A stretch of 7,292 bases of DNA from IMG/VR virus record IMGVR_UViG_3300029650_000039, positions 298-7,589 of that record. One strand, given 5' to 3'. Shown here piece after piece: positions 2,245 through 5,711 of the stretch; the first letter of the stretch is position 1, and each line of letters starts with the position of its first letter. The notes under the pieces are model-generated. The model was given only the letters and a program-made list of their open reading frames with translations, was not told the DNA's origin and did no database searches. The DNA comes from a virus. Both the position numbers and the translations under genes were made by a program.

Positions 2245-2866
2245 TAATTGTTTCCTCCTTATTCATTCCATAGTATTCTCTTATTCTTTCGTCAACTGCT
2301 TTCAAATCGTTATCAATCTCTAAATCAAACATATCCATAGGCGACTTGCACGTTGTATGTCCGTCTGATTGCGTTATGAAACTATGACTTTGACCGTCAG
2401 CTTGACATAGTAAAACGATTGAAAACAGTCCCTCAACTGTCAACTGATTGTCCAACATTTTACCGATTGTTTTAGCCTTGATTTTACCGTTTTCGGTCTG
2501 CTCGCAATGGTGCAGAAAATACACGATTGTATCATCAGGCAATCCCTCGATGATGAATGTAATCATCTTTTGAAAACGTACCGCCATATCGGTAAACTTC
2601 GCATAGCCTGTTTCTTTTGCACGATTGAACGAATCGAACGCCAACAGATATTGACTGTCGTCTATAACGTATCGCTTATACTGCTTTTTACTTAATTCTT
2701 TGGCAATAACATTGTATGTAGCCTTTTTGATTGAATTTAACTTTTTGCGGAACGGAAGTGGTTTACTTGCCACATTAAATATTACCAAATCATCTGCGTC
2801 AAAATTTCTCATACTTGCGCTTTTTCCGCTACCGCTTTCACCCATAATTAAAACAGGTATTCCCAT
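2222..2866 (-). CDS. Sak4-like AAA_24 / RecA-fold ATPase (single-strand annealing accessory)
   Basis: The track start at 2875 is a GTG lying inside the SD. ATG 2866..2864 is preceded by AAGGAG (2880..2875) with an 8-nt spacer, giving MGIPVLIMGESGSGKS... with Walker A GESGSGKS and a Walker-B-like RYVIDD. The TGA stop at 2224..2222 overlaps the next gene by 23 nt. Confidence 0.8.
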   Translation of the reverse strand: MGIPVLIMGESGSGKSASMRNFDADDLVIFNVASKPLPFRKKLNSIKKATYNVIAKELSKKQYKRYVIDDSQYLLAFDSFNRAKETGYAKFTDMAVRFQKMITFIIEGLPDDTIVYFLHHCEQTENGKIKAKTIGKMLDNQLTVEGLFSIVLLCQADGQSHSFITQSDGHTTCKSPMDMFDLEIDNDLKAVDERIREYYGMNKEETINEEDTGI

Positions 2867-2878
2867 ATGTATCACTCC

Positions 2879-3355
2879 TTATTTTATGCTCATATTATTT
2901 CTTTCGACTAACTCTGCATGCGGAATATCAAAACCGCCCTGCAACATTCCCTTGATGACCGTTTTGTTTGGCTCCGGTCTTTTGAACGTCAACAGGTCGT
3001 TATTGTTCTTCATTGCATAATCAATAAATTCGTCATCAACTTCCACTGCTGTTGATTTTCTGTAACTTATCGCCACTTTTGAAGTAGCGAATTTATTACC
3101 TTGCAATGTTCGATTTACGAAATTCTTCAAACTTTCCGCTCTATGCTCCAACGTCTTGCGACGTTCCGCAAGCGATTTTTCTTCTTCACGGATAGCCTTA
3201 CTCTCAGCTACAAGATTTTTATACCATAGTGCTACGTTTTCAATTTTTTCTTCCTTTTGCATTTGCAGTTCTTCAAACGCTTCGTAATCCTTTATTTCGC
3301 CTGTTTCTTCATCTATCAGTGACAACATTTCGTTGTCTATTTCATATACGTTCAT
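2879..3355 (-). CDS. Siphovirus Gp157-family protein (Sipho_Gp157)
   Basis: 158-aa ORF with ATG at 3355 and an AAAGGAAAAA SD. It has an acidic N-terminus and a coiled-coil core, ...EEKSLAERRKTLEHRAESLKNF.... The C-terminal ...KRPEPNKTVIKGMLQGG... pattern matches my recollection of PF05565. Its TAA stop (2881..2879) overlaps the SD of the next gene. Confidence 0.75.
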   Translation of the reverse strand: MNVYEIDNEMLSLIDEETGEIKDYEAFEELQMQKEEKIENVALWYKNLVAESKAIREEEKSLAERRKTLEHRAESLKNFVNRTLQGNKFATSKVAISYRKSTAVEVDDEFIDYAMKNNNDLLTFKRPEPNKTVIKGMLQGGFDIPHAELVERNNMSIK

Positions 3356-3384
3356 TTGACTTTTTCCTTTCTGTATGTTAAAAT
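3356..3384 (+). promoter_or_regulatory. Sigma-A-type promoter with extended -10, antisense to the operon
   Basis: TTGACT (3356-3361), a 17-nt spacer, then TGt-TAAAAT (3376-3384). A second TTGTGT-TTTAAT motif lies at 3389-3400. The promoter sits over the gp157 SD and start codon on the opposite strand. Confidence 0.6.
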
Positions 3385-3390
3385 ATCATT

Positions 3391-3450
3391 GTGTTTTAAT
3401 ATATGCCGTTAAACGGTATTACGGGGGAATTTAATTCCCCCGCTTTTTTA
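3391..3450 (+). ncRNA. Candidate ~60-nt antisense sRNA (as-1)
   Basis: Predicted TSS is about 3391. There is a small hairpin ATGCCG-TTAAA-CGGTAT, followed by a strong intrinsic terminator. The RNA would be complementary to the intercistronic mRNA between the 233-aa gene and gp157. Confidence 0.45.
3423..3449 (+). terminator. Intrinsic terminator, plus-strand specific
   Basis: The 19-nt near-palindrome GGGGGAATTTAATTCCCCC (3423-3441) can form an 8-bp stem with a 3-nt loop. It is followed by GC and then T6 (3444-3449). On the minus strand the hairpin is followed by GTAATACC with no U-tract, so it should not terminate the operon efficiently. Confidence 0.75.
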
Positions 3451-4152
3451 TTATTCAATTATATGTACGTTTTGTACGTCTGCAAGTAATTCTCTTAGCT
3501 TGTCCGCAACATTTTTTACTGCCTCACATTTCCAAGCTCCGCCGTCCGCCTCGAACAGTGCTGCTCTGCCGTCTTTAAGTCTGATTAAGAAATCACTTTC
3601 CGGTTGTTCAACCTCTAAAAATGTTCTGTATGGTTTCAACGTAACAATCGGCTTAATTCTCTGTTCACCTACCAACTGAATACCACTCTTGACGGTTGCC
3701 GATTGCGTTATACCGTCATCTTTCGTCTGAACCGATTGTTGGTCTGTTATGTTACCAAGCAATTGTACAAGATAATCTCTGTCCTCTGTCGGTGCAAAAC
3801 GTGATTTTAGACAGATAATCATATCTTCGATACTTATATAATCGTTGAAATCGAAACTGATGAATTTTGCATATGTAACATATGGTCTTTCACGTTGCAT
3901 ATCACATCTGACCGTACCCAATACATCAACCTGCTCCGGTGATACCACTCTCACGAATAATGGATTGTCATAATTGTTCATTTCTTGTTTCATCATAGTG
4001 ACTAAACCGCTTAGACTTGATAACTTAGTTGTATCAACCAATCTGTCCTCAATTCTGCGCAGTTGAAAGTCCGAAAACATGCCATAGTCGGTCTTAATCA
4101 CCTTTGGTCCTGTCATTTCTTCAATTTTTTCAATAAAACTTCTATCAATCAT
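3451..4152 (-). CDS. Phage protein of unknown function (possibly DUF2303/YfdQ-like; unverified)
   Basis: 233-aa ORF with ATG at 4152. Strong SD AAGGAGGA has a 7-nt spacer and lies 18 nt after the upstream stop. Composition is protein-like. The ...LKPYRTFLEVEQPESDFLIRL...FEADGGAW... segment reminds me of DUF2303, but I cannot verify that. Confidence 0.85.
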   Translation of the reverse strand: MIDRSFIEKIEEMTGPKVIKTDYGMFSDFQLRRIEDRLVDTTKLSSLSGLVTMMKQEMNNYDNPLFVRVVSPEQVDVLGTVRCDMQRERPYVTYAKFISFDFNDYISIEDMIICLKSRFAPTEDRDYLVQLLGNITDQQSVQTKDDGITQSATVKSGIQLVGEQRIKPIVTLKPYRTFLEVEQPESDFLIRLKDGRAALFEADGGAWKCEAVKNVADKLRELLADVQNVHIIE

Positions 4153-4170
4153 TTCTTTATCCTCCTTAAA

Positions 4171-4527
4171 TTACATTGCTTTCTTAATTGCTATAATCTT
4201 TGGCTCGTCTTGCTCCGAGCCGTCTAATGCCATTTGTCCCGGTACTTGTGGCAACATTTCGACTAATGCTTTGCCCTCATCCGATTCCGTCAAATACAAC
4301 GCACTTTCAATGTTGTTCGTTGGTGTCAATGTTGACTTAACCTGTGTTGACATTTTGATGTTCTGTCTTTCGCTGTCCGGCTTTAGTGACAACGTCAATG
4401 TTATCTTTCTTACTGCGTCCGCTTTGGTGTTTAGGTCGGCGATATTATCAACGACCTTGCTTAGCTCATAGTCCAATCTTTCACCGATTGCGCCACGAGC
4501 GACCTCTAATAAATTTGCATTACCCAC
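4171..4527 (-). CDS. Hypothetical phage protein (118 aa), GTG start
   Basis: An in-frame TAA at 4533..4531 caps the ORF, and the only start near its 5' end is GTG 4527. The SD is only purine-rich and weak (AAGAAAGAAA), unlike the GGAGG-type SDs of its neighbours. A TTG codon 17 codons downstream is an alternative start. Function is unknown. Confidence 0.7.
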   Translation of the reverse strand: MGNANLLEVARGAIGERLDYELSKVVDNIADLNTKADAVRKITLTLSLKPDSERQNIKMSTQVKSTLTPTNNIESALYLTESDEGKALVEMLPQVPGQMALDGSEQDEPKIIAIKKAM

Positions 4528-4544: not shown

Positions 4545-4572
4545 TTGATTTTTTATTTTTTTGTGGTATAAT
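4545..4572 (+). promoter_or_regulatory. Sigma-A-type promoter with extended -10, antisense to the operon
   Basis: TTGATT (4545-4550), a 16-nt spacer, then TGg-TATAAT (4564-4572). It lies over the 5'UTR of the 118-aa gene on the opposite strand. Confidence 0.6.
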
Positions 4573-4581
4573 ATATGTAAA

Positions 4582-4599
4582 ACATAGATTAATCTATGT
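4582..4599. repeat. 18-bp perfect palindrome ACATAGATTAATCTATGT
   Basis: Read directly from the sequence. It lies at about +3 to +20 of the 4545-4572 promoter. Confidence 0.9.
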
Positions 4600-4609
4600 A
4601 ATTACCTTT

Positions 4610-4647
4610 GACCGTTTCGAGTTGCACCTCATACGGTCTCTTTTTTT
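4610..4647 (+). terminator. Intrinsic terminator, plus-strand specific
   Basis: GACCGT (4610-4615) pairs with ACGGTC (4633-4638). An inner GAG/CTC pairing closes a hexaloop. TC and then T7 (4641-4647) follow. On the minus strand there is no U-tract after the hairpin. Confidence 0.65.
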
Positions 4648-4889
4648 ATGCTGATTTTGCAATGGCAGCCTGCTCCAAGATTATCATTGCTTTTGTACAT
4701 TTCTGTTTGCTTAAAGGTTTCTTCTGCGTATATCGAACAGAATTTTAATAGTGTATCGCCAGTTTCCTTGTATTGATACATTGCTCTGAAAATCTTGCAC
4801 GCTTGCTCTATTGTTTCCGCCTCGATGATTATCCAGCCACCCTTAAATGGCTGTCCCTCACTGCCGAATGTAATGTAATAGTTATTCAT
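4629..4889 (-). CDS. Small hypothetical phage protein (86 aa)
   Basis: ATG at 4889 with SD GGGAGGTGA about 7-8 nt upstream. The N-terminus YITFGSEGQPFKGGW... resembles a common small phage protein family of unknown function (recall only). Confidence 0.8.
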   Translation of the reverse strand: MNNYYITFGSEGQPFKGGWIIIEAETIEQACKIFRAMYQYKETGDTLLKFCSIYAEETFKQTEMYKSNDNLGAGCHCKISIKKETV

Positions 4890-5429: not shown

Positions 5430-5711
5430 TTATGCCGATAAACCTAATTTTTTAAGTTTATCTCTGCGTTTTTCAAGTTCTGCAACATCAATGCCCCACA
5501 CTTCATATGCAACTTCGGTATTGATTGTGTGCAACTGCGATGTTTTGACATCTTGCTTTATCTGTTCTTCCTGTACGGCTTTCTTGTACTTTGTCAGTGC
5601 CGCAGAACCCAAACCACCGAACAGCTCCTTGATTTCCTTGTTGCCGATTTCGGGGTATCGGTAATATATGTACAATGCCGTATCAATGTCAACTATTCTC
5701 TTTACTTTCAT
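5430..5711 (-). CDS. Putative HTH DNA-binding early regulator (93 aa), first gene of the minus operon
   Basis: ATG at 5711 with SD AGGTGA (5723..5718) and a 6-nt spacer. The segment IGNKEIKELFGGLGSAALTKYKK reads as helix-turn-helix. The gene lies immediately downstream of the divergent promoter region. The functional call is inference. Confidence 0.8.
   Translation of the reverse strand: MKVKRIVDIDTALYIYYRYPEIGNKEIKELFGGLGSAALTKYKKAVQEEQIKQDVKTSQLHTINTEVAYEVWGIDVAELEKRRDKLKKLGLSA

Follow-up and report, generated by a model that had tools for sequence, protein, structure and literature searches.

We analyzed a 7,292-nt stretch of viral DNA (hereafter, the window), which corresponds to positions 298 to 7,589 of the IMG/VR record IMGVR_UViG_3300029650_000039 and makes up most of that 7.6-kb viral fragment. 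The window carries a minus-strand operon that spans ~5.7 kb, down to position 3 of the window, and whose members include genes for proteins of 86, 118, and 233 amino acids (aa), a Gp157/Gam-like gene (hereafter, gp157), and genes encoding an AAA_24/Sak4-like ATPase, a DUF669 protein, and a DUF927 primase-helicase (Table 1). Inside the 95-nt gap between the 233-aa gene and gp157, the opposite strand holds a compact element, hereafter unit 1, in which two tandem promoters are followed by a hairpin and an intrinsic terminator, and from which a short antisense RNA (as-1) is predicted to be transcribed. The closest genomic relatives of the window are prophage-like regions in metagenome-assembled genomes of gut Clostridia, the host itself being uncultured; this affiliation justifies modeling the promoters as SigA-type with a TG/TRTG extension. 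Voskuil and Chambliss are said to have reported in 1998 that this extension is common among Gram-positive promoters.

A preliminary description of this locus had placed a plus-strand promoter, TTGACT-17-TGtTAAAAT, in the 95-bp gap, and each of its elements (here, promoter P1a) was confirmed in place. The same description held that the promoter overlaps both the Shine-Dalgarno (SD) sequence and the start codon of gp157. The first part stands, as the P1a spacer contains the minus-strand SD GAAAGG (the reverse complement of 3366–3371), whereas the −35 hexamer merely abuts the start codon. Beyond what had been described, we identified a second promoter, P1b, and a 5′ hairpin at 3403–3419. P1b lies 16 nt beyond P1a, giving two tandem SigA-type promoters, and over 17 nt shares 88% identity with the promoter belonging to a sister unit (unit 2) that is described below. 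The strong hairpin followed by T6 was likewise recovered: 8 bp of its stem sit in the GGGGGAATTTAATTCCCCC palindrome at 3423–3441, as had been claimed (the end coordinate "4441" given earlier was a typographical error), although the stem reaches 9 bp when its outer pair is included. The U-tract exists on the plus strand alone, as proposed; the minus-strand sequence beyond the hairpin is UAAUACCG, which contains no U-run, and hence the terminator reads only on the plus strand.

Table 1 Features of unit 1, its sister unit, and neighboring genes in the window
Feature	Position	Strand	Remarks
P1a −35, TTGACT	3356–3361	+	TTGACA in most relatives
P1a spacer, 17 nt	3362–3378	+	TATG at 3374–3377 (TRTG/−16 motif), n at 3378; TG at 3376–3377
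P1a −10, TAAAAT	3379–3384	+	Promoter scan
P1b extended −10, TGTGT-TTTAAT, without −35	3390–3400	+	TGTGT-TATAAT in relatives
5′ hairpin, 7-bp stem, UAA loop, core CCGTTAAACGG	3403–3419	+	Folding
Terminator hairpin, CGGGGGAAT-TTA-ATTCCCCCG	3422–3442	+	GC-rich; 9 bp including outer C-G pair
T6 tract	3444–3449	+	Overlaps second stop codon of 233-aa gene
Predicted antisense RNA as-1	3391–3450	+	From promoter and terminator positions
Sister antisense unit 2	4545–4648	+	TTGATT-16-TGTGG-TATAAT; terminator GACCGT..ACGGTC plus T7
gp157 start codon, ATG	3353–3355	−	Antisense −35 starts at adjacent base
Tandem stops of 233-aa gene, TAA TAA	3448–3453	−	Sequence reading
Gp157/Gam-like gene, 158 aa	2879–3355	−	PF05565, E = 1.4e-29
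233-aa gene	3451–4152	−	phrog_1029, function unknown
118-aa gene	4171–4527	−	phrog_997, 'replication terminator'
Optional two-gene cassette, 118 aa + 233 aa	3451–4527	−	Bracketed by units 1 and 2
86-aa gene	4629–4889	−	Operon member

From the positions of these elements, as-1 would be ~59 nt long when started from P1a (near 3391) and ~43 nt long when started from P1b (near 3407), in both cases ending in the U-run. The predicted RNA folds with a free energy of −21.8 kcal/mol (z-score −3.8) and is a perfect complement of the intercistronic mRNA between the 233-aa stop codon and a point ~20 nt upstream of the gp157 SD, such that the promoter, and not the RNA, covers the SD and abuts the start codon. 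No open reading frame (ORF) is contained in 3391–3450, and the only plus-strand frame in the region (3403–3489) runs through the terminator and lacks an SD.

Sequence conservation was evaluated among viral loci retrieved with the two neighboring proteins (158 loci); the promoter-terminator cassette is carried by 77 loci, with one copy per locus. Since a conservation table made from motif-selected copies is circular, it was replaced by a diversity profile of 33 distinct sequences that had been gathered by BLAST, not by motif, and by loci found through synteny. Among the 33 relatives, nucleotide diversity (π) was 0.082 in the P1a −35, where variation was confined to position 6 (A/T), 0.047 and 0.030 in the −10 hexamers of P1a and P1b, 0.052 in the terminator stems, and 0.030 in the T-run, compared with 0.03–0.07 at codon positions 1 and 2 and 0.13–0.155 at codon position 3. 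The P1a spacer (0.25) and positions 3385–3389 (0.33) were far more diverse. Diversity in the −35, the two −10 hexamers, the terminator stems, and the T-run is thus as low as at non-synonymous sites, and diversity in the spacer is higher than at synonymous sites. Purifying selection falls on exactly the promoter and terminator positions, while the sequence between them drifts faster than silent sites, and the comparison of hexamers and hairpin with flanking coding sequence that the preliminary description had proposed as a check came out in its favor.

Figures on spacing and on the TG element rest on motif-collected copies. The P1a spacer was 17 nt long in every such copy despite at least seven different spacer sequences, and its length was unchanged in three loci in which the SD is shifted by 2 nt (L037, L043, and L044). 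TG was present at −15/−14 in all versions except that of L084, which is near a contig end, and the P1a −10 variants (TAAGAT, TACAAT, TATAAT, and TATTTT) all keep T1, A2, and T6. In the terminator stem, a compensatory change from G-C to A-T was found in L034 and L091, with one-sided intermediates in L009 and L041. A covariation analysis on a MAFFT alignment that included divergent cores misaligned them and scored few compensatory pairs; the replacement of hairpins by unrelated hairpins, described below, is a stronger argument than formal covariation. The cassette persists even though the gene that follows it differs among relatives, being gp157, a small gene for a Zn-ribbon protein, or a third gene, indicating that the unit belongs to the junction, or module boundary, and not to gp157.

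In many relatives (L006–L046, L087–L092, L160, L161, and L073) the Zn-ribbon gene, which encodes 62–71 aa with a CxxC...CxxC motif and begins with MFGY.., MIYGN.., or MPELH.., lies between the antisense unit and gp157. The window lacks this gene, and gp157 stands directly at the cassette.

The same design recurs at the same junction in lineages in which the nucleotide sequence has been replaced. Diverged loci were found purely by synteny, downstream of diverged homologues of the 233-aa protein, and in lineages in which this neighboring protein is only 36–65% identical, a −35, a −10, a hairpin, and a T-run occupy the same junction in unrelated sequence. Locus L160 (65% protein identity) has CAT-TTGACA-17-TGA-TAAAAT followed by a new 5′ hairpin, a new terminator, and T5, and L161 (64%) has the full consensus TTGACA-17-TGG-TATAAT with an 8-bp 5′ hairpin, a terminator, and T5; in the most distant loci, L073 (36%) and L168 (38%), TTGACA lies at or overlaps the start codon, TAnnnT follows 17 nt on, and a terminator with a T-run is present. 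TTGACA adjoins the start codon in L160, L161, and L073. Replacement is also seen over short distances: in L026 and L082, the flanking 300 nt are 86–88% identical to the window, but the transcribed core is only 54% identical, compared with 46 ± 3% for shuffled cores, and its 5′ hairpin (GCATTTAC/GTAAATGC) and terminator stem both differ from those of the window. Taken together, L026/L082, L160, and L161 carry an unrelated hairpin in the position of the 5′ hairpin, and the terminator stems differ in these loci and in L073. The core is a hypervariable island between a conserved promoter and a conserved terminator, yet the fold of every version consists of a 5′ hairpin followed by a terminator (z-scores of −3.6 to −5.2), and in every version the T-run follows the hairpin on the plus (antisense) strand and never on the sense side. 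The earlier claim of a self-contained unit of ~60 nt, antisense to the intercistronic mRNA, is thereby backed by sequence constraint, by recurrence with unrelated sequence, and by the side on which the T-run lies.

How often such units occur in either orientation was estimated from 358 distinct gaps of 40–220 nt between co-directional ORFs in all fetched loci. Promoter-to-terminator units numbered 14 in the antisense direction and one in the sense direction, and terminators alone numbered 33 and 15, respectively; the antisense excess is in the direction predicted by the antisense-unit hypothesis. Many of the 14 are variants of unit 1, and counting independent antisense units leaves about six (the window type, the L026 type, L168, L177, L195, and L138/L151) against the single sense unit, with L165 as a further antisense unit beyond these. 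The count also shows that early operons of gut Bacillota phages, both related and more distant ones, repeat this design. In the distant phages and prophages, the units lie at other gene boundaries (L165, start 3516; L177, 5433–5521; L138/L151, 2456–2662; L195, 1390–1524), and the −35 is at or overlaps the start codon in L165, L177, and L138/L151.

Unit 1 is also far from what is expected by chance. Under strict criteria (at least 10 of 12 hexamer positions plus TG), the window contains three promoters, all on the plus strand, compared with 0.24 expected from 300 dinucleotide shuffles, and none of the 300 shuffles yielded a promoter followed by a terminator. The motif TGTGNTWWAAT occurs at four sites (0.21 expected), all of them on the plus strand and in gaps; the sites at 5765 and 6751 precede real plus-strand genes, making this the promoter type that the phage uses, and those at 3390 and 4562 lie in antisense gaps. 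The same promoter type is also found ahead of a plus-strand gene in L015.

The third strict plus-strand match, ATTACA-16-TGC-TATAAT (4170–4197), extends across the 118-aa stop codon and the translation initiation region (TIR) of the 233-aa gene, and is followed by a hairpin, GGCTCG..CGAGCC, at ~4203–4222 without a T-run. This match might mark a third antisense promoter, or it might have arisen by chance. On the minus strand, the best promoter, TTGACA-18-TATATT (5663–5692), falls within a 93-aa ORF (5430–5711, first-ATG call); the gene probably has its true start at a later codon, or else the operon begins with another gene.

Unit 2 repeats the plan of unit 1 in the same operon. It contains a perfect 18-nt palindrome at 4582–4599, folds with a z-score of −4.6, and is conserved in relatives, including compensatory changes inside its terminator. 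Its promoter (4548–4572) shares 80% identity over 25 nt with the promoter of a divergent 260-aa gene (5751–5775), and TAATATATGTA(A/C)AA is common to its start region (4569–4582) and to the early-promoter region (5662–5675). A group of relatives, class C, lacks the pair of 118-aa and 233-aa genes and has one hybrid antisense unit instead, in which the sequence after the unit 1 cassette is a homologue of the core and terminator of unit 2. This hybrid unit indicates that the pair of genes flanked by the two antisense units is an optional cassette. Different sets of relatives lose homology to the window exactly at the unit 1 −10 block (~3385) and at the point where the unit 2 T-run stops (4647), so that mosaic junctions coincide with conserved promoter and terminator blocks. 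The two genes are conserved side by side in cultured Bacillota phages (phiCD38-2 gp42-43, MM1 ORF16-17, Hayley 63-64, and phiCT19406B 18-19), and a protein search placed members of the 233-aa family in 127 phage records at <60% identity, while a megablast search of 2800–4300 against cultured phages returned no match, and the five cultured-phage loci inspected offered no model of this exact unit.

Unit 1 is probably a new member of the general class of phage cis-antisense small RNA genes: a housekeeping-sigma promoter lies opposite the operon, and an intrinsic terminator of the same orientation lies a few tens of nucleotides downstream. Judged from the sequence features above, we consider transcription of unit 1 very likely, and it is probably a selected cis-antisense regulator of entry into the replication module. 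No tRNA or tmRNA was found in the predicted RNA, and an Rfam search at a permissive E-value gave chance-level matches only, the best being SR6_antitoxin with 21 bits against a gathering score of 55 (E = 0.24). The literature search turned up no description of such units in Gram-positive gut phages and no transcript data for this phage group.

Other identities for the gap were tried and rejected. A type I toxin-antitoxin system does not fit, as the predicted RNA overlaps no ORF and its neighbors are the 233-aa gene and the 158-aa Gp157 gene. Inspection of the minus strand by eye in three versions revealed no conserved −35/−10 pair that could serve as a sense-strand promoter. A sense-direction terminator, which the preliminary description had named as one of the outcomes that would overturn its reading, was not found either, since no U-run follows the hairpin on the minus strand in any version.

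Among characterized systems, the sar RNA of phage P22 (immI, arc-sar-ant) offers a close parallel. Liao et al. in 1987 and Schaefer & McClure in 1997 are said to have described sar as an RNA of ~69 nt with a two-stem structure. It covers the ribosome-binding site (RBS) of ant. Like sar, as-1 would be a short untranslated RNA with its own promoter on the opposite strand of an intercistronic region and with an intrinsic terminator, and would act, as proposed here, as a secondary brake on the downstream gene. Unlike in sar, the promoter and not the RNA covers the RBS, since the SD (3366–3371) and the ATG (3353–3355) lie upstream of the predicted start near 3391 and the predicted RNA ends ~20 nt short of the SD; the two share no sequence or Rfam relation, and unit 1 differs further in its Gram-positive host, its tandem promoters, and the presence of two units per operon. 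The role of sar as an antisense regulator of ant is documented (PMC2629481, PMC5415839).

The parallel drawn in the preliminary description was with lambda OOP, a 77-nt cis-antisense RNA of the early rightward operon whose pairing induces RNase III cleavage and message decay (PMC5415839), and of which an equivalent has been detected in the prophage BTP1 (PMC7067206). The functional likeness holds, in that both are cis-antisense RNAs, predicted in the case of as-1, in an early operon beside replication genes. The likeness does not extend to target geometry: OOP overlaps the 3′ coding end of cII, whereas the U-run of as-1 would end at 3449–3450 and touch only the stops of the 233-aa gene, covering neither coding sequence nor an RBS, and the two RNAs are not homologous. 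Unit 1 is thus best seen as a functional analogue of sar and OOP that matches the target geometry of neither. A third relevant RNA is STnc6030, an antisense RNA of the Salmonella prophage BTP1 that has been shown experimentally to mediate superinfection exclusion, with specificity provided by a short complementary stretch (PMC7067206); it is >700 nt long and antisense to late structural genes, in contrast to the ~60-nt RNA predicted here in an early operon.

We propose that unit 1 would act through two combined effects, as suggested by its geometry, that together brake the downstream Gp157/Sak4-like/SSB/primase module. Polymerase bound at or firing from P1a and P1b would oppose sense polymerases through convergent-promoter interference, and strong sense transcription would in turn occlude the antisense promoters. 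The RNA duplex would also be a substrate for a double-strand RNase of the RNase III type, leaving the downstream message uncoupled and destabilized, a step for which OOP/cII and RNase III provide a precedent (PMC5415839). The half-site CTATGT is not enriched in the window (seven occurrences compared with 3.6 expected; 9 of 200 shuffles reach seven), and as no operator is evident, the RNA would presumably also be made in a lysogen, where it could damp leaky or incoming copies of the same junction in the manner of STnc6030 (PMC7067206).

Several observations weigh against a regulatory antisense RNA. The reverse complement of a ribosome-binding region, with its A/U-rich sequence, SD, and A-rich spacer, is biased toward −10-like and TTG-like words, and a looser promoter scan showed no enrichment in the window (20 sites compared with 25.7 expected), so that a loose promoter match by itself means little. 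The copy in the window is slightly off the family consensus, with TTTAAT rather than TATAAT at P1b and A·C at the outer stem pair that is G-C in relatives. As P1a overlaps the TIR, translation might account for part of its conservation, and the T-run shares bases with a second stop codon. RNAs from the two strands of the gap are equally well folded (−20.2 kcal/mol for the minus-strand RNA, compared with −21.8 kcal/mol for the plus strand), and structure alone cannot assign the strand. The cassette might consequently consist of sense-mRNA elements only, that is, a TIR and hairpins that stabilize or process the operon mRNA, with a fortuitous promoter match and no functional antisense RNA. This explanation would account for the overlap of P1a with the SD and its abutment on the ATG, for another TIR in the window that starts with CATTTG and shares GTTCATTTG, and for five cultured-phage loci that have a hairpin after the 233-aa homologue and no clear antisense promoter. 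We nevertheless regard it as unlikely: the SD-bearing spacer is the most variable part of the cassette, whereas hexamers that have no known translational role are constrained; the exact 17-nt spacing and the TG at −15/−14 persist across at least seven spacer versions; TTGACA-17-TAnnnT recurs in lineages with no other nucleotide similarity; and P1b lies outside any ribosome footprint, yet has a π of 0.03. Sense-only elements also fit poorly with non-homologous terminators that always have their T-run on the antisense side and with the count of 14 antisense units to one sense unit. The readiness with which AT-rich reverse complements of RBS regions yield promoters leads to a different possibility, that the terminator only stops spurious antisense transcription from entering the upstream gene and that the RNA is non-regulatory. 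Antisense terminators are indeed twice as common as sense terminators in operon gaps (33 compared with 15), the transcribed core is free to be replaced, and some terminators lack a recognizable promoter (L080, phiCD38-2, and phiCT19406B); given the hairpin and antisense-side T-run without a promoter in two cultured phages, phiCD38-2 and phiCT19406B, the terminator-like element may have a role of its own. Spurious promoters should decay, however, whereas the −35 here is at or near full consensus, the −10, the TG, and the spacing are under purifying selection and have been re-created in distant lineages, and two tandem promoters are retained. The presence of a 5′ hairpin in every version despite its changed sequence suggests selection on the RNA itself, and we consider insulation against transcriptional noise improbable to much the same degree as sense-only elements.

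The hypervariable core between a conserved promoter and terminator, and its occurrence as several discrete types, could also indicate an RNA that acts in trans or in conflict, with a target outside the message of its own operon, for example superinfecting relatives, mRNAs of the host, or a host defense. There is precedent in STnc6030, the prophage antisense RNA that excludes superinfecting BTP1 (PMC7067206). We judge such a target very unlikely, since no seed is conserved among the core types, no Rfam relative was found, and the fixed position of the unit, which places its promoter on the TIR and its terminator at the stop codon, points to a function at this very junction; exclusion of incoming identical junctions would in any case still be cis-type pairing and falls partly within the regulatory reading that we favor. 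Finally, the palindromes could work at the level of DNA, as sites bound by proteins, whether operators or a site of replication or recombination, or as conserved boundaries of mosaic recombination. The hairpins form perfect or nearly perfect dyads, they are located in a replication/recombination module, and the −10 block (~3385) and the last base of the unit 2 T-run (4647) are exactly where mosaic junctions occur. The compensatory changes and the replacement of dyads by unrelated ones, one of them with a 17-nt loop, fit RNA structure better, the CTATGT half-site shows no enrichment, and use as a junction leaves the promoter geometry unexplained, which makes a DNA-level element extremely unlikely.

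Beyond the proposed braking of the replication module by unit 1, we raise a more speculative idea, which we think rather doubtful: that these units form a modular, specificity-diversifying layer of RNA immunity, in which each hypervariable two-hairpin core sits between a promoter and a terminator that are conserved. Short RNAs, made constitutively by a prophage, would then pair only with leaky or incoming early messages of the same junction type. Such a layer, if real, would drive core replacement, of which at least five unrelated types are seen at one junction, and the conserved −10 and T-run blocks would become mosaic break-points that move cassettes such as the pair of 118-aa and 233-aa genes.

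Post-transcriptional control in phages of gut Clostridia, phages known only from metagenomes, is essentially unexplored. Unit 1 marks the entry to the replication/recombination module, coincides with mosaic break-points, and seems to exemplify a design that recurs in the early operons of Bacillota phages; such units should receive gene annotations rather than appear as empty gaps. Should they prove to be brakes or a form of junction-specific immunity, models of prophage induction, superinfection, and module exchange in the gut virome would be affected.

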